Shown piece by piece: positions 8,471-49,431 of a DNA stretch of 64,000 bases. Position numbers and translations under genes: made by a program. The number at the start of each line of letters is the position of its first letter. The stretch's first letter is position 1. Source of the DNA: Dehalococcoidia bacterium (GTDB lineage: Bacteria > Chloroflexota > Dehalococcoidia > DSTF01 > JACRBR01); contig JBGQBE010000005.1 of the NCBI GenBank assembly GCA_041494685.1, forward strand, positions 1-64,000, written 5' to 3'. Below the pieces are notes generated by a model. That model was not told the DNA's origin. It ran no database searches and was given only the letters and a program-made list of their open reading frames with translations.

Positions 8471-10137
8471 TAGCGTTCCTCCTGTAGTTCCGGCGGGATG
8501 GCGACGCCCATGCGTGCCGCCAGTGTGCGCATGTCCTTCTCGAACCCACCGCTCTTCTCTGCGAGCGAGGCAATGTGGGTGCCGCGCTGGTCGAGCCGGA
8601 GCCAGAGCCGGCGGCGTGGCAGGTAGAAGGTTAGCGCAAGACCGAAGAGCAGCATAGCGGTGGCCACCCAGATGAACCACGAGCCGTAATCCCGCTTGAC
8701 GGCGATGCCCGCGAACGCGCGCTGGCCGACGAAGGTGTATTCGTACGGCCCCGCGATCGTCGCCTGCCCCGGGGCGAGCGAGATCGCGGGCCGCCCGTTC
8801 GACACGAGCATCAGCGATGACGTGCCATCCGGCTGCGTGTTCAGCTGCGCCAGCGTGTTCGCGCTGCCGCCGGGGAGGCCGACGCCGACCGCGGACGGCA
8901 GCGACGCTACGCGATCGAAGCGCAGCGTCAGTCCGCTCAGCGTGCCCGAGGCGCCCTGATCGATGCGCACCTGCTGGTCCTGACCGCCGCCCTTCGGGTC
9001 GAAGGCCACCAGCTGCCACGCCTGGTCGCCCCGCGCCGTGATGCCGATCCACACCACGCGGTCCGTGCCGGGGACCGAGACCAGCGCACCGCTGGCGGCG
9101 GAAAGGAAGTCCGTCGGGGCGATGGTATCGGTCAGCAGCGTGTGCCCCGCGGCATCGCTGATCGTGACGGCGGGCGCGGCCGTCGACTCTTCGAGCGAGA
9201 ACGTCTCGTGGAAGACGGTGTTGCCGGTCGCGACCTCGCGGATCTTCAACTCGGCGCCCCACGGGAAGAAGGCGATCTGGTGGAAGCGGTAGCCGCCGTA
9301 CTTGAACGGGTCGTTGACCGTCGTCGTGCCTTGCGCCACCTGCTGGCCGTTCTTGAAGATCGTCAGCCGCGTGCGGAAGTCCAGCGGGTTGCCCTGCGCG
9401 CCGAACTTGCCGATCGCATCATCGACGCGAACCTGCAGCTGGTTCGGGTTGCTCACGGCGAATACCGGCGTCGTCGTGCCGGCGCCGGCGAAGATCTCGG
9501 TGCTGAAGCCGGTGAACCAGGTGACGAGACCGCCGGAGATGAAGAGGATGAGCGCCAGGTGGCTGATGAAGGTCGCCAGCTGCGTCCACGGATAGCGGTC
9601 GGCGAACACGTAGGTCGCGCCGTCGCGCTCCTCCGCCTGGATCCGGAACCGCATGCGCTTCAGCGCGCGTACCAGCACGCTGGGCGCGACACCATCGAGC
9701 GTGGCGCGGTTGTGCGCGCGGTCGAAGAACGACTCCGGGACGCGGTGATTCGGGTGGAAGACGTTGCGGAACGTCGGCGCCCAACGGTTGAAAGTGCAGA
9801 CGCTGACGTTCACGACGAGAAAGCCCAGCGCGGCGAGGAACCACTTGGCGTGGAAGACCTCGAAGAACCCGAGCCGGTACATCGGATCCGTCAGCGGCCC
9901 AAACGTGCCGCGCTCCGAGTCAAGCCACACCGTGATCGCGGCGCGGTTGCCGCGCATCGCCTCCGGCACCTGCGGCACGAGCACGCCGATCAGCGCAAAC
10001 GTCGCGAGCGTGGCGATGAAGAACACCGCGAAGCGCACCGACGTCAGCGTCCGCCAGACGGGCTGGAACGGATCGAACGCCGCGCGGCGGGAAGGCGTCG
10101 CGGCCTTCGCGGCGGGCGTCGCACCATCCGCCGTCAT
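8470..10137 (-). CDS. resB: Cytochrome c biogenesis protein ResB/CcsB
   Basis: LTSVRFA...IGVLVPQ, CTFNR, TM His (SHLALILF), VNDPFKYGG, C-terminal TM then RRRLW; next to a ResA-like gene. Confidence 0.85.
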   Translation of the reverse strand: MTADGATPAAKAATPSRRAAFDPFQPVWRTLTSVRFAVFFIATLATFALIGVLVPQVPEAMRGNRAAITVWLDSERGTFGPLTDPMYRLGFFEVFHAKWFLAALGFLVVNVSVCTFNRWAPTFRNVFHPNHRVPESFFDRAHNRATLDGVAPSVLVRALKRMRFRIQAEERDGATYVFADRYPWTQLATFISHLALILFISGGLVTWFTGFSTEIFAGAGTTTPVFAVSNPNQLQVRVDDAIGKFGAQGNPLDFRTRLTIFKNGQQVAQGTTTVNDPFKYGGYRFHQIAFFPWGAELKIREVATGNTVFHETFSLEESTAAPAVTISDAAGHTLLTDTIAPTDFLSAASGALVSVPGTDRVVWIGITARGDQAWQLVAFDPKGGGQDQQVRIDQGASGTLSGLTLRFDRVASLPSAVGVGLPGGSANTLAQLNTQPDGTSSLMLVSNGRPAISLAPGQATIAGPYEYTFVGQRAFAGIAVKRDYGSWFIWVATAMLLFGLALTFYLPRRRLWLRLDQRGTHIASLAEKSGGFEKDMRTLAARMGVAIPPELQEER

Positions 10138-10802
10138 TGGACGCCCACCAACGCCAGGTCGCGCGCGATCGTCTCCGCCGTCATCGGCCCGTATTCGCGC
10201 GCCTGCACGATGCCCTTCGCATCGACGAAGTACGATGACGGGATGCCCTGGATCGGGCCGCCGATCCGCCACGCGTCGGCGACGGCGCCGGTCGTATCCG
10301 TAACGATCGGGAACGTCATGCCGAACTCGGACGCAAACTGGCGCACCTGCTCGGTGTTCTCCTGCAGGTCCACGGCGAGCACGGTGAGAGCGCCCGCGTG
10401 CGCGCCGTACGCCCGCACGATCTCAGGCATCTCCTCGCGGCAGGGGGCGCACCATGACGCCCAGAAGTTCACCAGCACCGGCCTGCCGCGCAGATCGCTC
10501 AGGCGCACGCGCGAGCCGTCCAGCGACGCCAGCACGAAGTCGGGCGCGGCGCGCCCCGGGTTCGTCGAGACGCCGCGGCCCGTCGTGTTCAGCGCCGCTG
10601 GCAGCTCCACCACGCCAAGGCCGTCGGCCGGGTGACTGCCGCCGCCGCGCCGCTGCGCGTACCACACCGCGCCCACGATCACCGCGACGATCAGCACCGG
10701 CAGCACCAGGCTGCGCAGCGGCCCGCCCCACTCGCGGCGGTTCTGGGGCCGCTCCTCCACACCGGAGACATCGTCGACGGGCAGATCGTCGTTCATGCTC
10801 AT
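10134..10802 (-). CDS. resA: TlpA/ResA-family thiol-disulfide reductase
   Basis: APDF..., VNFWASWCAPCREEMP, N-terminal TM anchor. Confidence 0.9.
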   Translation of the reverse strand: MSMNDDLPVDDVSGVEERPQNRREWGGPLRSLVLPVLIVAVIVGAVWYAQRRGGGSHPADGLGVVELPAALNTTGRGVSTNPGRAAPDFVLASLDGSRVRLSDLRGRPVLVNFWASWCAPCREEMPEIVRAYGAHAGALTVLAVDLQENTEQVRQFASEFGMTFPIVTDTTGAVADAWRIGGPIQGIPSSYFVDAKGIVQAREYGPMTAETIARDLALVGVQ

Positions 10803-11566
10803 GGCAGCGGCTCGAACAGCTGTGTGTAGATCGTGCGCACGTCCGTATGCGGCAGGCCCTTGCCGAGAAACGCGTCGGCCGCCCGCACTTCGAAGTGCAG
10901 GTGCTCTTCGGTGTCCGGGCGGCTGAGCGACTCAGGCGTGCCGGAGTCGCCGACGAAGGCGATCGTCTGGCCCTGCACAACCTTCGTGCCGACCTGCACG
11001 TTCGCGGCGATGTCCGCCAGGTGCGCATAGCGCGTGATGATGCCGTGCCCGTGATCGATCCACACCTGGCGCCCGCGGAACAGGTCCAGCACATCGGCGT
11101 CGTTGGCATGGCCCGCGGCGATCTTCGCGTTCGCGGCATCAAGCTCCGCCTGCGTCAGCGGATGATAGTCGTGGTCCGCGCGCAGGACGACGCCGTCCTT
11201 CGCGGCGAGGACGGCCGTGCCCTTCACGATGGTCGTGCAATTGTCGTAGCCATAGAAGTCGACGCCCTCGTGCACACCGCTCCGATACTCGCGGGGCGCG
11301 TTCGGCATCAACTGGTCACCGGACGGCAGGCAGGCGCCCTTGATCGGGTAGATGAAGTTGCGGAACACGGTGAGGTCCGCCGGCTCCGACGTCGGCGTGG
11401 TTGCGGGCGCGGGCGGAGTCGACGTGGGCGCGGGCGCGGCGGCACCGCCGTTGCATGCGGCCAGCGTCAACGCGAGTGGGATCGCGAGCAGAGGTGCAGG
11501 GATGAAGCGCCGCAGTGGACGACCAGCCTTCCGACCCGGACCGTGGCAGGGGGCCGCAGTCAGCAT
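10799..11566 (-). CDS. M23 family metallopeptidase, probable lipoprotein
   Basis: HEGVD, YAHL, HLHFEVR; lipobox LAAC; start uncertain. Confidence 0.9.
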   Translation of the reverse strand: MLTAAPCHGPGRKAGRPLRRFIPAPLLAIPLALTLAACNGGAAAPAPTSTPPAPATTPTSEPADLTVFRNFIYPIKGACLPSGDQLMPNAPREYRSGVHEGVDFYGYDNCTTIVKGTAVLAAKDGVVLRADHDYHPLTQAELDAANAKIAAGHANDADVLDLFRGRQVWIDHGHGIITRYAHLADIAANVQVGTKVVQGQTIAFVGDSGTPESLSRPDTEEHLHFEVRAADAFLGKGLPHTDVRTIYTQLFEPLP

Positions 11567-12207: not shown

Positions 12208-12858
12208 ATGGTCTTTCGGCGCGCGGGCGACGACCGGCGGGACGACGTGGTAGAGGAAGATGAGGACGGCCTGAACATTCGCAGCGAAGACGACGACGGC
12301 GAGGACGAAGAGGCGGAGCCGCTGTTCAAGGACGGCGACATCTGCTGGGCCTGCCAGGACGAGCCGGGCCGCGTCGGACTCGACCCGTCGTGCGGCGGCG
12401 AGTACCCGGGCCTGGATCCGGTGCTGCTGGGCGAGCGCTGCCTGCCCGCCGCGTTGAAGGAGGCGTACGCCACGACCGAGGGCATCGGCGCGATCGTCGA
12501 GCCGTTCGGCACGTACGGCCAGCACCTGTACTACCGCCTCGACGAGATGCCCGCGTACGGCTTCACGCGCGACGACGTCGAGGGCGTGTCGTGGCTGATG
12601 CTGACGATCGGCGACGCGTGCGCGCGCTGCGGCGAGCAGAGCCACTTCACCTGGCTGACGAAGGACTTCGTGGACCCGAACTTGCCCGAAGAAGAAGACG
12701 AGCCGGTGTTCCGCAACCTCGACCGCGAGGCAGAGCGCCTCTGCCGCTCGTGCGCGGCCGACGCGTTGGCGCGCGGTTACGCGGCCCTGAAGCCGCGGCT
12801 GGTGACGGTGGAGCTGCCGCGCGGTGCAATGGGCGTCATGATCCCGGCGAGAGCGTAA
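12208..12858 (+). CDS. Hypothetical acidic Cys-rich protein
   Basis: GC3-rich codon usage, three CxxC pairs; TAATG overlap with the next gene. Confidence 0.7.
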   Translation: MVFRRAGDDRRDDVVEEDEDGLNIRSEDDDGEDEEAEPLFKDGDICWACQDEPGRVGLDPSCGGEYPGLDPVLLGERCLPAALKEAYATTEGIGAIVEPFGTYGQHLYYRLDEMPAYGFTRDDVEGVSWLMLTIGDACARCGEQSHFTWLTKDFVDPNLPEEEDEPVFRNLDREAERLCRSCAADALARGYAALKPRLVTVELPRGAMGVMIPARA

Positions 12859-43488: not shown

Positions 43489-44880
43489 CTACGCCGCGCG
43501 GCGCAACCGCTCTTGCTGGCGCGCGAGGAGCGCATCCACCACGCGCGGATCGAACTGTGTGCCGGCGTGCCGCGCGATCTCGTCGTACGCTTCGGCGCTC
43601 GTCCGCGCCGCCTTGTACGGTCGCGCCGCCATAATCGCGTCGTAGGCATCCGCCACGGCAAAGATCCGGGCGGCCAGCGGGATCTGCTCGCCGCGAAGGC
43701 CGCGTGGATAGCCGCTGCCGTCGAAGTGCTCGTGGTGGCAGAGCACCAGCTCGGCCGCGGTGGCCAGGAAGCGCACGCCGGCGAGCATGCGATATCCCTG
43801 CATGGAGTGGGATCGGATGATCTCCCACTCCTCCGCGTCGAGCGGTCCCGGCTTGCGCAGCACGGCGTCCGGCACGCCGATCTTGCCGATGTCGTGCAGC
43901 ATCGCGCCGTGCTTCAGGTCGAGCCATTCGCGCGTGTCGGGCTTGACGCCCAGCGTCAGGCCGAGTTCCAGCGAAAGCTCCGCCACGCGCGTGGAGTGTC
44001 CGTGCGTCTCGATGTCGCGCGTGTCGAGCGCGGAGACAAATGCCGCGAGTGTCTCGTTGTACGCGTCCGCCAGTTCGTGGCTGAGCGTCTCTACCTCGGT
44101 GTTCTTCTCGCGCAGCTCCCGCACGGTGTGCTCCGTACGATCCACGTACTGCTTCATGGTGAACCGCGTCATGACCACGGGGAGCGTCAGGCCGAGCACA
44201 CCGTATGCCGCAAGTTCGTCGTACGCCATGACCAGCATGAACGCCAGGAAGCCCATCACGACGAAATGCGGCACGAGCCACGCGAACGTCTCGCTCCACA
44301 CGCGCCGCAGCGACGCGCCGCTCGTGCACCCGATGATCGACGCCACCAGCGCGCTGCTGACAGCGAAGTGCGCCAGAGACGCGGTAATGATGGCGGCAGC
44401 CTGCACCGGCCGCCCGCCGTACGGCGTCGCGTGGGCCATCAGGCGATAGGCGCCGAAGGCAGCAAGCGCGGCGAGTACAAACACGCTCGCGTTGAAGATC
44501 AGCTTGTACAGCGGCCGGCCGCGCCCCACATGAGCGGCCAGCGCCACCGCCGGGCACACCAGCAGCACCGCCACGGGGCCGAACAGCACAGCGGCCGTCA
44601 CCATGAACAGGACGCTTACCGACACGCGGCCGTCGCCGTAGACGTGGATGTCCAGCCGCTCGGACGCCATACCCAGCGCCGCGATCAGCGCCAGTGTCAG
44701 CCAGGCGCTCCCTGGCAGGCTGAGTTCGGTGTAGGCAAGGGCGATGGCGCCCGCCAGGACGCCGGCGCACGCGGCCACGGCGATCAGGAGCCGCGCCCCG
44801 GCGGGCAGGCGCTCATCCGGCGGCGCGGGACCCGCGACGGACGGCGGCGCCACCCGCAGGCGCGCGTCTGACTTCTCCAA
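43489..44880 (-). CDS. HD-GYP phosphodiesterase with N-terminal multi-TM sensor domain
   Basis: T.GHS.RV, LHDIGKIG, HHEHFDGSGYPRGL, VADAYDA; ~7 TM plus coiled-coil linker; TTG start with AGAGGAG SD. Confidence 0.93.
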   Translation of the reverse strand: MEKSDARLRVAPPSVAGPAPPDERLPAGARLLIAVAACAGVLAGAIALAYTELSLPGSAWLTLALIAALGMASERLDIHVYGDGRVSVSVLFMVTAAVLFGPVAVLLVCPAVALAAHVGRGRPLYKLIFNASVFVLAALAAFGAYRLMAHATPYGGRPVQAAAIITASLAHFAVSSALVASIIGCTSGASLRRVWSETFAWLVPHFVVMGFLAFMLVMAYDELAAYGVLGLTLPVVMTRFTMKQYVDRTEHTVRELREKNTEVETLSHELADAYNETLAAFVSALDTRDIETHGHSTRVAELSLELGLTLGVKPDTREWLDLKHGAMLHDIGKIGVPDAVLRKPGPLDAEEWEIIRSHSMQGYRMLAGVRFLATAAELVLCHHEHFDGSGYPRGLRGEQIPLAARIFAVADAYDAIMAARPYKAARTSAEAYDEIARHAGTQFDPRVVDALLARQQERLRRAA

Positions 44881-45034
44881 TCCGCTACTCCTCTGCGAGA
44901 TTGTCGTCGCGTGCGGGACGAATATGCAGGCGATTTCCCCGAAATATCCCGCTCCGGGCCATCAGATGCTCGAAACGCCGCCGATTGATGTGAGTGGCGG
45001 ACGCGACTGAAGCGTCCCCGACAACCGAATACAC

Positions 45035-45123
45035 CTCCGATAAAGGCAAACCCGTCGAAAGGCGGGGGCGCAAAGCCACGGGCCTACACCCCATACGGGG
45101 CACGGCAGCCGGGCTGCCGGTTT
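45035..45123 (+). ncRNA. c-di-GMP-I (GEMM) riboswitch
   Basis: AAAGGCAAACCCGTC-GAAA-GGCGGGGGCGCAAAGCCACGGGCCTA...GGCAGCCGGGCTGCCG matches the GEMM-I core; G at the position-20 equivalent. Confidence 0.92.
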
Positions 45124-45134
45124 CATTCGGAGCC

Positions 45135-45179
45135 AACCCCCGCTATCCCACGGGCTGAGGTAGCGGGTTCTCTTTCTTT
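45135..45179 (+). terminator. Intrinsic terminator (riboswitch expression platform)
   Basis: cccgctat...gtagcggg stem followed by ttctctttcttt, just before the GGAGG SD. Confidence 0.7.
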
Positions 45180-45192
45180 GGCGGAGGTGCGT

Positions 45193-46689
45193 ATGTTCCA
45201 GTCCAGACCCTGGTTCCATGTCCCTATCCTGGGAGGGCTGCTCCTGCTGGTAGCCCTCATCTCGGCGGGCATCACGCCTGCCACCCGCACGTCGCACGCG
45301 CAGGGCGCCGTCTGGGCGTACGGCGACGCCCATCCCGGCCAGCCCATCCCGGTGATCGTCCAGACGGACGGCGGTGCGGATGCGGCACAGTTGGTCCGCG
45401 CGAGCGGCGCGGCCGTCCGCGTGGACCTCGGGTTCATGCACGCGGCCGCGGCCGACATCCCGGCCGACCGGCTGCACGAACTCGCTGCCGCGGACCACGT
45501 CGCTAACATCAGCCTCGACGGCACGGTGTCGTCCGCCGACGACGGCAAGAACAGCCCGATCGGCACCGACGGCGCGCCGACCAGCGTGTATCCCCGCGAG
45601 ATCAAAGCCGGCGATCTCTGGAACGACGGCTTCTCCGGGCAAGGCGTCGGCGTCGCGATCGTCGACACGGGCATCGTGCCCAGCAAGGACTTTGGCTCCC
45701 GCGTCATCGCCACCTTCGCGACGCAGGCCGGGACGTCGCCGGACGGCTACGGCCACGGCTCACACGTCGCCGGTCTCGCGGGCGGCAACGGCGCGAACTC
45801 CGCCAACCAGTACCGAGGCGTGGCGCCGAAGGTCAACCTGATCAACGTCAAAACGGGCGATGACCAGGGCCTGGCGCATGTCAGCGACATCATCGCGGGC
45901 CTGGCTTGGGTGCTCGACAACAAGGACGCGTACAACATCCGCGTCGTCAACCTGTCGCTGCGCTCCGACACGGCACAGAGCTACACGACCGATCCGCTGG
46001 ACGCCGCGGTCGAGCTGCTGACGTTCCGCGGCATCCTCGTCGTCGTCGCGGCCGGCAACACCGGCACCGTCGCCGACGCCGTATCCTACGCGCCGGCCAA
46101 CGACCCGTTCGTCCTCACCGTAGGCGCGGTGGACGACCTCGGCACATCGGACTACAAGGATGACCTCGTCGCGCCCTGGTCCAGCCGTGGCGCAACGCAG
46201 GACGGCTTCGCCAAGCCGGACGTGTACGTGCCCGGCCGCCACCTCATCTCGGTGCAGAGTCCGGGCAGCGTACTCACGGCGCTGTTCCCCAACAACCTCG
46301 TCGGCTCGTACTACTTCACCCTCAGTGGCACGTCGATGGCCGCGGGCGTGGCGAGCGGCGGCGCCGCGCTGCTGTTCCAGGCGCATCCCGACTGGACGCC
46401 GGGCCAGGCGAAGCTCGCGCTGATGCAAGGCTCCAGGGCGGTGTCCGCCGACGCTACGGTCAACGTGGCCCAGCTGGACCGCTCGGTCGAACTGTCGCCC
46501 GTCGACACGACGACCAGCATCAAGCCAAACTACCTGCTGCTGCAGGCCGCCGGCATCGCTGACCCGCAGAGCATCAGCTGGGGCAGCGTCTCGTGGGGCT
46601 CCATCTCGTGGGGCAGCATCAGCTGGGGCAGCATCTCGTGGGGCTCGGTGTCCTGGGGCAGCGTGTCCTGGGGCGAGGCGGGGGAGTAA
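45193..46689 (+). CDS. Secreted S8 (subtilisin-like) peptidase with C-terminal SxSWG repeats
   Basis: Signal peptide, short prodomain, triad IVDTG / HGSHVAG / SGTSMA, oxyanion AAGN; 7x S[IV]SWG tail. Confidence 0.93.
   Translation: MFQSRPWFHVPILGGLLLLVALISAGITPATRTSHAQGAVWAYGDAHPGQPIPVIVQTDGGADAAQLVRASGAAVRVDLGFMHAAAADIPADRLHELAAADHVANISLDGTVSSADDGKNSPIGTDGAPTSVYPREIKAGDLWNDGFSGQGVGVAIVDTGIVPSKDFGSRVIATFATQAGTSPDGYGHGSHVAGLAGGNGANSANQYRGVAPKVNLINVKTGDDQGLAHVSDIIAGLAWVLDNKDAYNIRVVNLSLRSDTAQSYTTDPLDAAVELLTFRGILVVVAAGNTGTVADAVSYAPANDPFVLTVGAVDDLGTSDYKDDLVAPWSSRGATQDGFAKPDVYVPGRHLISVQSPGSVLTALFPNNLVGSYYFTLSGTSMAAGVASGGAALLFQAHPDWTPGQAKLALMQGSRAVSADATVNVAQLDRSVELSPVDTTTSIKPNYLLLQAAGIADPQSISWGSVSWGSISWGSISWGSISWGSVSWGSVSWGEAGE
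46570..46674 (+). repeat. Seven 15-bp coding repeats (SISWG x4, SVSWG x3)
   Basis: AGCATCAGCTGGGGC-type units; Ser codons alternate AGC/TCG/TCC. Confidence 0.95.
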
Positions 46690-46691
46690 CG

Positions 46692-47522
46692 ATGGCAATC
46701 GCGAATACCCGATCGCCCATGCACTCCTCGGTCTTTGAACTCCCGACGGGGCGCGCGCTCATCGCCTTCGTCGTGAGCGTCACCGCCGCGGGCGCCGCTG
46801 CCATCACCCTCGCCGGCTTCTTTGGCAGCGGCTCCGGCAACCTCACGCTCATCGCCGGCCTCGTGATCGCCGGCGCGGTCTCAGAGCGCTTCAAGGTCGG
46901 CCTCTTCGGCGACGCGCACGTATCGCTCGCCGCGGTCGCGATGATGGCGGCCGGTCTCATCGGCGGCGCGCGCGACGTCGTCATCGTCGCGCCACTGATC
47001 GCCATCGCCGTGAACGTTGGCGGCGTGGTGCCGTTCTACAAGACGGCCTTCAACGTCGCGGCGTACACCCTGGCGTCGCTGGCGTTCCTGGGCACCGTTC
47101 GGCTCGCCGGCGCGACGCCGCTCACCGCAGCGTGGCCGCAGAGCGTAGTCGCTGCCACGGTCGGCACCGCCGTCTACTTCGCGCTGAACACGGCGTTGAT
47201 CGCCACGGCCGTCAGCATTGCCTCGGGCAACCGGTTCGCGGACGTGATCCGCGGACGCTACCTGTGGCTGCTGCCGCACTACCTGCCGCTGGGCGCGCTC
47301 GCCGCCTCCCTGGCGCACGCCTACGACCCGACGGGCGCGTGGTCCATCGCCATCTTCGCCGCTCCGGTGGCCGCCGTGCAGTTCGCGCTGTACCAGTACG
47401 CCAGCCTCCGGCGGACGAACGCCGCGAGCCTGCGCGAGATCGAGGAACGGATGCGCCTCGTCGAAGCCGAGCTGACGCTCGCGCGGACCCTGGACGGCGC
47501 GCCGGACCGCAACGTCGCGTAA
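46692..47522 (+). CDS. Stand-alone multi-TM protein paralogous to the HD-GYP sensor domain
   Basis: Shares SER....GD..VS, P.YK..FN, WL.PH, AYD, P....F...QY with 43489..44880; ends after a coiled coil; starts 2 nt after the S8 stop. Confidence 0.85.
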   Translation: MAIANTRSPMHSSVFELPTGRALIAFVVSVTAAGAAAITLAGFFGSGSGNLTLIAGLVIAGAVSERFKVGLFGDAHVSLAAVAMMAAGLIGGARDVVIVAPLIAIAVNVGGVVPFYKTAFNVAAYTLASLAFLGTVRLAGATPLTAAWPQSVVAATVGTAVYFALNTALIATAVSIASGNRFADVIRGRYLWLLPHYLPLGALAASLAHAYDPTGAWSIAIFAAPVAAVQFALYQYASLRRTNAASLREIEERMRLVEAELTLARTLDGAPDRNVA

Positions 47523-47582
47523 CGCGGTGCGCCGGCCGTGACACTACGGCACGCGATATGTATGGTGCGGCGGGCGTTGCCC

Positions 47583-47680
47583 GAGAACCAAGAACTCAGA
47601 ACCTGGAACCTCGGTCTGTGAACGACCCGCTCCCAGGTTCGAAGTTCTAGGTTCTAGGTCTAGGTTCTTAGTTCTGGGTT
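47583..47680. repeat. Inverted arrays of heptamer repeats (AGAACCT / TAGGTTC)
   Basis: agaacca agaactc agaacct ggaacct ... caggttc gaagttc taggttc taggtc taggttc ttagttc. Confidence 0.85.
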
Positions 47681-47691
47681 GGGGTCGCCGT

Positions 47692-48465
47692 ATGAGCCAG
47701 CTGTTCTCGATCGAGGGGAAGACCGCCGTCGTCACCGGCGGCTCGCGCGGCATCGGCTTGATGATCGCGCGGGGCATGGTGGAGGCCGGTGCGAAGGTCT
47801 ACATCTCCGCGCGCAAGGCCGACGCCTGCAACGCCGCGGCGCAGCAGCTCTCAGCGATCGGCCAGTGCATCGCCATCCCGGCCGACGTCGGCACGGAAGA
47901 CGGCTGCCGCTTCCTCGCCGATGAGGTCGGCAAGCGCGAGGAGCGGCTGCACATCCTGGTCAACAACGCCGGCGCCAACTGGGGCGCGCCCATGGACCAG
48001 TATCCCGACTCAGCGTTCGACAAGGTGTTCGCCGTGAACGTGAAGGGTGTCTTCAACCTCACGCGCTTCATGGTGCCGCTGCTGGAGTGCGCGGCGAGCG
48101 ACGACGATCCCGCGCGCGTGATCAACATCGGCTCGATCGACGGCCTGCAGGCGCCGATGCTCGACACGTTCGCCTACTCGTCGAGCAAGGCCGCCGTGCA
48201 CCACCTGACGCGCGTGCTCGCGCACAAGCTGGCGTCGAAGCGGATCACCGTGAACGCGATCGCGCCCGGACCGTTCGAGAGCAAGATGATGGCGGAGACG
48301 CTGGAGCGCTTCGGCGACTCGATCCGCGCGTCATGCCCGCTGGGCCGCATCGGCCGCCCCGACGACATGGCCGGCACAGCGATCTTCCTGTCGTCCCGCG
48401 CCGGCGCCTACCTGACCGGCACGATCATCCCCGTCGACGGCGGCATCTCCACCCGCCACGGGTAG
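47692..48465 (+). CDS. SDR family oxidoreductase
   Basis: TGGSRGIG, NNAG, YSSSK. Confidence 0.93.
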   Translation: MSQLFSIEGKTAVVTGGSRGIGLMIARGMVEAGAKVYISARKADACNAAAQQLSAIGQCIAIPADVGTEDGCRFLADEVGKREERLHILVNNAGANWGAPMDQYPDSAFDKVFAVNVKGVFNLTRFMVPLLECAASDDDPARVINIGSIDGLQAPMLDTFAYSSSKAAVHHLTRVLAHKLASKRITVNAIAPGPFESKMMAETLERFGDSIRASCPLGRIGRPDDMAGTAIFLSSRAGAYLTGTIIPVDGGISTRHG

Positions 48466-48608
48466 CCCGCACTCCATGGTGATCAAGGTCGGCTGACCCC
48501 GCCGCGATCAGCGCAGTGATCCCCATCGGCTACGTGTCCGCAAGGTGGCCACGGGCCAGAGGATCGGGTCGCCCGGCGACACAGCGTGAACTACCACTGG
48601 GGCGTTCA

Positions 48609-48636
48609 TGGCACCCCTGGCAGGATTCGAACCTGC
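48609..48636 (-). mobile_element. Duplicated tRNA-Arg 3' end (attR-like)
   Basis: Reverse complement GCAGGTTCGAATCCTGCCAGGGGTGCCA, 26/28 identical to the 3' end of the tRNA at 49470. Confidence 0.8.
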
Positions 48637-48654
48637 CAAAGCGCAGGTAACAGC

Positions 48655-49431
48655 TTAGGAAGATCGCAGGCTGAGTGGGTGCCGGTGATGGCCCTGCTCA
48701 GGCTTCGCTTTGGCGAGGCTCCAAGTCCAGCCGATCGGGCGCAGCCCAAGGCGAGCAGCAACTCGCTGAGACGAGAGATTTTGAGCGTCTGTGCTATAGA
48801 ACATGTGGCGACCGCTGGGACGCAGGATGTCTGCCCAGGTCGCGGTTACCTCAACGGCGTAACCCCGCCGCCGGTAATCGGGGTGAGTCCATACACCGCA
48901 TTCCGCAGCCCGCTCGGTCGTCCGCCGCGGCGTGTGGCAGATCGAGACGACCTTCCCGTCAACAACGGCCATCGCCCACGGCCCGAGAGTCCCGTCCAGT
49001 AACTCATCCCACTCCCCGGCACCCCAATTGCCAGGGTTGAAGGGCCGCAACCGTTCGCCGAGGCGTGTATCCGAGCGCGCGATGTAGGCCCGCGGCTCGA
49101 TGCGGACATCATCCTCGATCAGAAAGTACGGACCTGCATCGAGAGAAAGCGGTGCGCAGGAAGATTCCAGAATCTCTCGGCAAACTACCAGCGCCAGGGG
49201 TTCTATATCGGGGGCGGGCGCCCTGGGCGACGTGTCGACTGCGTCGACTAATGCAGGCACAAGAGTCTCCGGGATTTCACTGCCGACGAAGAGGACTTGC
49301 CCATCACTTGTCGAAGCGATCGTGACGCCACAGGCCCCGCGGAGACGGCGGCTGTCGTCCATCCACATCTCGGCTACGAGTTCGAAGAGCTCAAGACAGG
49401 TGGGTGAGTGCGAGGCTTGAGGTGGATCCAT
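48655..49431 (-). CDS. GNAT family N-acetyltransferase
   Basis: ECGVWTHPDYRRRGYA, N.SSQRVAARLG; more AT-rich than the flanking genes. Confidence 0.85.
   Translation of the reverse strand: MDPPQASHSPTCLELFELVAEMWMDDSRRLRGACGVTIASTSDGQVLFVGSEIPETLVPALVDAVDTSPRAPAPDIEPLALVVCREILESSCAPLSLDAGPYFLIEDDVRIEPRAYIARSDTRLGERLRPFNPGNWGAGEWDELLDGTLGPWAMAVVDGKVVSICHTPRRTTERAAECGVWTHPDYRRRGYAVEVTATWADILRPSGRHMFYSTDAQNLSSQRVAARLGLRPIGWTWSLAKAKPEQGHHRHPLSLRSS

Follow-up and report, generated by a model that had tools for sequence, protein, structure and literature searches.

Introduction

In Clostridioides difficile, a cyclic di-GMP (c-di-GMP) riboswitch controls the secreted protease Zmp1/PPEP-1. A comparable order, with a c-di-GMP-sensing leader before a secreted protease gene, is found in the stretch of DNA analysed here, 64,000 nucleotides (the window) of contig C5 from a Dehalococcoidia (Chloroflexota) genome of 3.29 Mb, 87 contigs and about 69% G+C. 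The subject of this work is the gene that follows that protease, located at positions 46692-47522 on the forward strand and coding for a stand-alone membrane protein that resembles the sensor domain MASE9 and carries no output domain (the short form). The C. difficile system differs from this locus in that its protease belongs to another family and has neither a co-transcribed membrane sensor module nor an adjacent paralogous phosphodiesterase.

MASE9 (Pfam PF20972) has been described as having eight predicted membrane helices, two of them short, and ligand binding within the membrane has been proposed for it (Galperin and Chou, bioRxiv 10.1101/2021.11.05.467447). In the parts of that preprint consulted the domain is presented as fused to output domains, no stand-alone form is mentioned, and no ligand is given as known. 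The short form agrees with this description in having eight helices, two of which are too short to span the membrane (residues 79-91 and 93-106 of an AlphaFold2 (AF2) model), and in its relatives the same domain provides HD-GYP, GGDEF-EAL and related enzymes with their N-terminal input; it differs in that it falls below the Pfam cut-off and ends at residue 276 without an output domain.

A second related system is the S-component fold found in transporters of the energy-coupling factor (ECF) type, which has also been reported for sensor kinases of the 5TMR-LYT group as well as for MreD (Partipilo and Slotboom, Commun Biol 2024, PMC11109136); as consulted, the main text of that article contains neither "MASE" nor "HD-GYP". 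The 5TMR-LYT kinases (BtsS/YpdA) resemble the modelled short form in using a six-helix S-component core plus an N-terminal helix H0 as the membrane input of signalling proteins. According to the same source, as far as consulted, they have seven helices, an outside N-terminus and a helix H6 that runs straight into the cytoplasm, whereas charge counts predict for the short form an inside N-terminus and an eighth helix.

Results

A stand-alone gene paralogous to a divergent HD-GYP enzyme

The short form is an output-less paralogue of the membrane domain of an HD-GYP enzyme encoded nearby on the opposite strand, and its open frame is a functional gene under selection, not a truncated pseudogene, because the end residue is shared by all orthologues and contig C35 of this genome holds a second short copy. 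The two genes of the window are:

46692-47522, forward strand: stand-alone MASE9-like membrane protein, 276 aa (short form); open frame from ATG 46692, no internal stops in the translation
43489-44880, reverse strand: MASE9-like membrane domain, linker helix and HD-GYP phosphodiesterase, 463 aa (long form); Pfam HD_5 138.4 bits, HD 74 bits

BLASTP aligns residues 16-276 of the short form with residues 24-279 of the long form in a single collinear block (90/266 identities, 34%, with 50% positives, E 1e-31), which begins at the first membrane helix and includes the helix behind the last membrane segment, where the short protein ends. The long form, whose translation contains the HHEHFDGSGYPRG motif, continues into HD_5 at residues 284-447; the HD-GYP catalytic domain (Pfam HD_5/HD) is absent from the short form, which gives no Pfam or NCBIfam match at E<=1. 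An earlier note, made from the letters of this DNA, had proposed the collinear similarity from a handful of peptide pairs, all of which were found in both translations and in register, and the pairwise alignment and Pfam comparison that it suggested gave a significant alignment with HD_5 on the long form only. Its reading that the short form stops after the linker helix without a catalytic domain agrees with the end of the alignment and with the Pfam/NCBIfam scan.

A BLASTP search of 5.8 billion proteins yielded 15 orthologues of 235-280 aa, with 44-85% identity to the short form. In their joint alignment all 16 sequences stop at one shared column, and 56 columns are invariant. No HD-GYP remnant was detected by tblastn with the HD-GYP catalytic half in 45207-49010 (E<=1e-4), and DNA contigs from other sediment runs that span the junction between protease stop and short start, as well as the short stop, show 0-1 differences and no indels (records 23 and 24 of X3, record 32 of X4). 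The orthologues thus carry no C-terminal catalytic domain and share one end position, which refutes the truncated pseudogene that the earlier note had named as the alternative.

The short form itself ends in -VA. All 16 aligned short forms terminate in -[V/A]-A (47514-47522 in the window), and Ala is the last residue in 9/10 of the short forms found in the class; we take this end to resemble ssrA-like C-terminal degradation signals. Directly 3' of the gene there is a long imperfect hairpin (47568-47689; 169-nt stretch, -78.2 kcal/mol, z -4.0), of which a motif of about 28 nt also occurs on nine other contigs of the genome, and this suggests a dispersed palindromic repeat. The next gene downstream, a short-chain dehydrogenase, starts at 47692. 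Within the coding region of the long form a sub-threshold match to the Twister-sister ribozyme was noticed (43807-43893, reverse strand, 30.1 bits against a gathering score of 34) and taken as chance, being below the gathering score and within coding sequence.

A riboswitch-headed operon with a Trp-tailed protease

The short form is the last gene of a riboswitch-headed bicistron, in which it follows a secreted subtilisin-type protease with a peculiar tryptophan (Trp)-rich tail. The elements of this operon are:

45036-45122, forward strand: aptamer of a c-di-GMP-I-GGC riboswitch at the head of the protease/short-form operon; Rfam RF03167 with 76.7 bits (gathering score 59) and E 2e-17
45123-45192, forward strand: expression platform with hairpin CCCGCUA...UAGCGGG, a U-rich run and the ribosome-binding site GGAGGUG
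45178-46689, forward strand: secreted subtilisin-type (S8) protease; Pfam Peptidase_S8 149.5 bits, residues 154-420
46570-46674, forward strand: tail at the C-terminus of the protease, made up of seven S-[IV]-S-W-G pentapeptides, Trp being every fifth residue

The protease stop codon TAA (46687-46689) is followed by two bases (CG) and then by the ATG of the short form at 46692, so that the 2-nt distance given in the earlier note is correct, and a Shine-Dalgarno-like run GGGGGAG for the short form sits inside the last protease codons. No terminator-like site was found on the forward strand between the two genes. Because of this and of the 2-nt gap, short form and protease almost certainly share one transcript behind the riboswitch; the shared riboswitch control that had been proposed earlier is thus supported, the RF03167 match being real.

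Concerning the leader, the CACCUCC at the 5' edge of the aptamer is complementary to the ribosome-binding site GGAGGUG, and in the fold of minimum energy (z -3.0) the ribosome-binding region is base-paired to 45032-45046. Both CACCTCCGA and CGGAGGTG are retained in the aligned leaders of related cassettes. Judged from these pairings, the architecture would fit a switch that frees the ribosome-binding site once the ligand closes P1. A c-di-GMP-I clan riboswitch lies upstream of the protease in all 8 of the f1-type cassettes with upstream flank.

RF03167 matches occur at four places in this genome, namely before the C5 protease (76.7 bits), before a second protease on C35 (79.8 bits), on C36 (66.3 bits) and before a gene pair on C52 (55.3 bits). 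The C52 locus (8942-11438) scores below the gathering score of 59 and continues with a sigma-factor gene of about 252 aa and a MASE9-like HD-GYP gene of 500 aa; the sigma factor and this phosphodiesterase may also be under c-di-GMP control. On C36 the match is on the minus strand (12528-12615), and the nearest downstream open reading frame (ORF) of at least 120 aa, coding for a 156-aa protein, is about 650 nt away. The leader of a related cassette, G136:C2 (L045 5615-5701 / L013 3273-3359), is best matched by canonical RF01051 (82.5 bits), whereas its relatives match the GGC variant; this hints that canonical and GGC aptamers may be interchangeable at this position and may sense the same ligand. 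In each of the four sediment runs, the contigs over 44994-45087 reach a summed depth 5-20x that of the flanking DNA, with numerous loose ends to either side, and therefore near-identical aptamer cores are carried by many other organisms in these sediments.

The protease ORF is listed from TTG 45178, although ATG 45193, after GGCGGAGGTG, is the likelier start, and its N-terminus reads as a hydrophobic signal-like segment in the translation. A six-frame scan of the whole genome found the W-x4 run of the tail in only two ORFs, the C5 protease and its C35 paralogue. The cassette proteases of related genomes, 10 out of 10, end in pentapeptides with Trp at every fifth residue (SISWG, SIRWG, KISWS or AIKWD), and so do 5/6 of the proteases from metagenome loci described below. 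No fusion of protease and MASE9 was seen, with Peptidase_S8 on 0/60 of the long relatives scanned. A DNA pattern with a Trp codon every 15 bases was tried as a way of counting tails and discarded as too unspecific, as it was present in 149/401 class genomes and its reversed control was also frequent; the one use of this pattern was that it placed a Trp tail about 1.8 kb upstream of a MASE9-HD-GYP gene in G007:C180.

Relationship to MASE9

Sequence comparison indicates that the short form is homologous to MASE9, at a level below the Pfam threshold. Against the gathering cut-off of 24.3 bits it reaches 10.7 bits (E 0.6) in a six-frame genome search and gives no hit at E<=1 as a protein, while the C52 long form scores 24.3 bits, exactly at the cut-off, the C35 short form 19.5 bits, and the HD-GYP form of C5 does not score in the six-frame search. 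In the orthologue set 7/16 sequences match MASE9 at E<=10 (best 1.7e-5), and a protein of 909 aa with MASE9, HD_5 and GGDEF (P0018) matches the short form at E 2e-15. The label "MASE9-like", which the earlier note had given tentatively, is consequently supported by homology to P0018 and by the profile matches, and is not supported by the Pfam cut-off, which is not reached.

A profile built on the short forms retrieves 1192 cluster representatives at E<=1e-3. Among 60 long matches scanned, MASE9 was found at E<=1e-3 in 29, with 17 reaching the cut-off, and the outputs comprise HD-GYP, GGDEF, GGDEF-EAL and histidine kinase. None of 32 short representatives (232-293 aa) carries an output domain; MASE9 is present at E<=0.01 in 16 of them and reaches the cut-off in 9, and this number is not a count of stand-alone proteins, as at least two (P0038, P0120) end inside a long-type linker motif and may be gene fragments. 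The nearest clusters in the ESM Atlas have MASE9 on 18-24% of their members. Proteins of about 900-1050 aa with the order MASE9-GGDEF-MASE9-HD-GYP, that is, with two MASE9 per chain, are frequent among the profile matches (P0043, P0047, P0052, P0058, P0061 and others), which suggests that two MASE9 domains can work side by side in one protein.

Predicted fold and topology

The AF2 model of the short form, obtained with the 16-sequence alignment (pLDDT 79.3, pTM 0.73), has eight helices, at residues 21-44, 51-72, 79-91, 93-106, 115-139, 150-178, 182-214 and 217-268. The third and fourth comprise 13 and 14 residues, and the last continues into a cytoplasmic helix of about 30 residues. Comparison of the model with 48,161 Protein Data Bank (PDB) representatives by VIA-align places ECF S-components or BtuM at all of ranks 1-15 (Z 16.4-10.1), the first unrelated structure being at rank 16 with Z 8.1; the matches include NikM (Z 16.4 over 183 residues), FolT (14.2), RibU (13.7), CbiM (13.2) and BtuM (10.1). 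Foldseek against the PDB agrees weakly, with S-components on top at a probability of 0.92-0.99 and E of about 0.1, and no match at E<=0.001. The model thus predicts a six-helix S-component fold. With ECF S-components (NikM 4m5c, CbiM 5x3x, FolT 5d0y, RibU 5kbw, BioY 4dve, ThiT 3rlb, BtuM 8ovv) 151-183 residues are aligned at an rmsd of 3.0-3.8; the differences are an identity of 8-15%, the opposite predicted orientation and one extra helix at each end of the short form.

At the sequence level, the short form has no match to S-component families (e.g. PF12822, TIGR04518) and none in the PDB except for one chance coiled-coil at E 1.3. Two relatives give matches below threshold, the 463-aa long form (P0002) to TIGR04518 (14.6 bits, cut-off 60) and P0054 to PF12822 (20.4 bits, cut-off 30.7). 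PF07694 (5TMR-LYT) has no match in the short form, the long form or the 16 sequences of the orthologue set.

The orientation was predicted from charge counts. Mean Lys+Arg numbers per sequence at the N-terminus and in loops L1, L3 and L5 are 2.8, 2.0, 1.3 and 2.8 in short forms and 3.0, 1.6, 2.8 and 2.7 in long forms, they are near zero (0.0-0.3) in L0, L4 and L6, and such residues are plentiful after the eighth helix, with two separate alignments in agreement. Because of these counts, and because the HD-GYP domain of the paralogue must be cytoplasmic, the N-terminus is probably inside, with eight helices and an S-component core inverted with respect to ECF S-components and 5TMR sensors; a caveat on this topology is that the long-form model (pLDDT 85, pTM 0.56) draws helix 191-288 unbroken and does not show the hairpin. 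With the core inverted, the loops with the majority of the invariant polar residues would be on the cytoplasmic side.

The cassette across genomes

A conserved three-gene cassette, consisting of the protease, a MASE9-HD-GYP phosphodiesterase and the MASE9-only protein, recurs in related genomes, and the evidence favours regarding the three as parts of one signalling unit. A sample of 401 genomes of the class was searched, of which 57 have the domain (E<=1e-5), in most cases within an open frame of about 500 aa. The 30 best loci, together with wider stretches around short candidates, gave 43 distinct domains by profile, 10 short (nothing after the domain) and 33 long; one long row, L034, is from the unpublished genome G230 and is an ordinary one on which none of the conclusions depends. 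The window's genome (G000) holds four copies of the domain:

C5, 46692-47522: short, 276 aa, after the protease
C5, 43489-44880: long, HD-GYP, divergent neighbour
C35: short, 245 aa, after a second S8 protease with SIRWG repeats
C52: long, HD-GYP, 500 aa, after a sigma-factor gene

The arrangements around short forms are:

HD-GYP on the minus strand, riboswitch, then protease and short form on the plus strand: G000 C5 (this genome), G308 C11, G136 C2, L012
Riboswitch, protease, short form, with no HD-GYP within 9-10 kb: G000 C35, G308 C14
Protease, long HD-GYP and short form on one strand: G260, G359, G383 (family f60)
Short form alone, with no protease, HD-GYP or riboswitch within 12 kb: G101:C105

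The divergent HD-GYP arrangement is also present in G308, G136, L012, L060 and L062, and in G123 the corresponding operon has the order protease, long, long. Six of the 10 class short forms stand directly after a Trp-tailed S8 protease, three after a protease plus a long HD-GYP form and one has neither, and a long form is located within about 2.5 kb in 7/10. It is thus the Trp-tailed S8 protease, not the phosphodiesterase, whose association with the short gene is tightest and most conserved.

Metagenome data yielded six further loci, with an S8 protease directly upstream in 6/6; the two that have enough flank both read HD-GYP on the minus strand, riboswitch (RF03167), protease, short form. A scan of genome contigs returned three loci, two of them identical to the G308:C11 and G136:C2 contigs. 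Most class long forms outside cassettes have no protease in their 1.5-kb flanks. In a phylum-wide sample the domain was found in 22/401 genomes, outside this genome always in frames of 463-1276 aa, so that this sample gave no further short forms. Literature searches on MASE9 and on stand-alone MASE sensors gave no description of this cassette.

Evolution and residue conservation

In a maximum likelihood tree of the 43 membrane domains, the 10 short forms fall within a group of 12 (support 94/92, below the star threshold), which also takes in an outlier on a long branch and G123's second long gene. This G123 gene, which bears HD-GYP, is sister to the f60 short forms (100/98), and types A and B of the f1 short forms are monophyletic (97/93). 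The label "short" corresponds to two changes on this tree. At least one member at the operon position of the short form, that of G123, still carries HD-GYP or has regained it. The cassette-linked f1 HD-GYP forms build a clade of their own (100/100), apart from 11 f1 forms located away from the protease, including that of C52. The protease tree and the short-form tree share one shape, and therefore protease and short form duplicated as a unit before these genera split. The trees thus indicate that the cassette was inherited and duplicated as a unit and that the short forms are an old paralogue lineage.

Concerning single residues, G34, S78, G92, K117, F120, N121, V170, W192, L193, P195, Y197, G201 and P225 are conserved in short as well as long forms. 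For the MASE9 family five aromatic and three Asn/Ser positions are given as conserved; residues of these types among those listed are F120, W192 and Y197, and N121 and S78. Twelve positions between 188 and 267 (E188, G218, M228, R230, Q235, Y236, T240, V244, L247, L254, L263 and Y267) are conserved in long forms only, in a comparison of 33 long with 10 short domains; E188 is at the beginning of helix 6, and the others are in the last membrane helix (TM8) and the linker. From this distribution, with the core residues common to both and the 12 positions exclusive to long forms, the short forms have retained the core of the sensor, whereas the constraint on the linker that transmits the signal has been lost.

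Discussion

The reading that we tentatively rank first, from gene order and sequence conservation, is that the short form would be a non-catalytic MASE9-type receptor subunit which tunes the protease-coupled phosphodiesterase, either in a mixed oligomer or as a competitor; a role as partner of the protease only ranks second. According to the proposed mechanism, protease and short form would be produced together whenever the riboswitch allows it, and the latter, in the membrane, would engage the same input as its phosphodiesterase paralogue, this input being the protease tail or a product released by the protease. The short form would set the strength of the c-di-GMP hydrolysis response, either as a member of a mixed oligomer with the phosphodiesterase or as its competitor, and since c-di-GMP in turn controls the riboswitch, the feedback loop would be closed. 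The conserved C-terminal -[V/A]-A may shorten the lifetime of the short form, so that its level would follow its synthesis rate. It counts for this reading that 3/4 of the RF03167-type matches of the genome precede operons with a MASE9-like gene.

A more specific version, built on the structural model and improbable as it stands, takes the domain as an upside-down S-component whose EcfT-gripping groove would face outward and dock the Trp tail of the protease; the output-less copy and the MASE9 of the phosphodiesterase would then form a mixed receptor through which the cell senses its own secreted protease (bound, released or cut) and turns this into c-di-GMP hydrolysis, with the riboswitch closing the loop.

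Several observations weigh against the short form being a subunit that tunes the phosphodiesterase. The riboswitch loop is not general, as f60/f62 cassettes have a riboswitch in 0/4 cases at E<=0.01. The linker helix differs among short types A, B and C, which argues against a conserved coiled-coil pairing with the linker of the long forms, itself strongly conserved. The C35 and G308 C14 cassettes have no HD-GYP within 9-10 kb, so that a partner would have to act in trans, and the G101:C105 short form has neither protease, HD-GYP nor riboswitch within 12 kb. Finally, the loci were found by searching with the short form, and the reverse association, from Trp-tailed protease to MASE9 neighbour, is unbiased in this genome alone, where it holds in 2/2 cases.

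Some of these points suit the alternative that ranks second, a somewhat unlikely one, in which the short form would serve the secreted Trp-tailed protease as a dock in the membrane, a maturation factor or a place of retention, with no functional tie to the phosphodiesterase. The protease is the most constant neighbour (9/10 class short forms and 6/6 metagenome loci), it co-diverges with the short form, the gap between them is 2 nt with the ribosome-binding site inside the protease gene, cassettes of protease and short form without a nearby HD-GYP exist (G000 C35, G308 C14), and the Trp tail is restricted in this genome to these two proteases. However, the same domain is the sensor input of HD-GYP, GGDEF, GGDEF-EAL and histidine-kinase proteins, the gene right after the protease is in 4/10 cassettes a full MASE9-HD-GYP enzyme, and the short form retains a cytoplasmic helix that would be superfluous for a mere dock.

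A pure decoy or sink, binding the MASE9 ligand without touching the phosphodiesterase and thereby raising the signal threshold, seems improbable. It would suit the intact family-wide residues of the membrane core next to a relaxed transmitter region, and co-expression with the presumed signal source; but a decoy made on the transcript of the signal source itself would blunt every signal equally, and the sequence gives nothing that separates a decoy from a mixed oligomer. Less probable still is a solitary transporter, an S-component-fold protein acting alone like BioY or BtuM and importing a small molecule, e.g. a product of the protease: ECF S-components or BtuM occupy the 15 top places of the structural comparison (Z 10.1-16.4, with an unrelated structure following at 8.1) and relatives give weak sub-threshold profile matches to ECF S-component families, yet the sequence relatives are sensor domains of signalling enzymes, the charge counts put the loops that form the pocket on the cytoplasmic side, the reverse of the situation in importers, and the short form itself matches no transporter family. 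A decaying remnant of a duplicated HD-GYP gene, for which one could point to the second gene of G123 with its HD-GYP in the same lineage and operon position, is rejected as next to impossible, given an end residue shared by 16/16 sequences, 56 invariant columns, a short lineage that spans at least two families of the class, no HD-GYP remnant downstream and no indels in contigs of other samples.

Regarding the tentatively preferred role as a receptor subunit and the family at large, the cassette couples MASE9 to one peculiar secreted protease and so provides a concrete candidate input for this domain. The S-component fold, which for MASE9 is not mentioned in the consulted parts of bioRxiv 10.1101/2021.11.05.467447 or PMC11109136, would, if right, extend the link between transporters and receptors from 5TMR kinases to c-di-GMP enzymes, and it points to an inverted insertion as a possibility, an unusual one. 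That a copy without output occurs naturally shows that the membrane module by itself has a function, and such a copy is a handy minimal construct for work on binding, topology and structure. Riboswitch, protease and phosphodiesterase would together make up a compact and testable second-messenger feedback circuit in uncultured sediment Chloroflexota.

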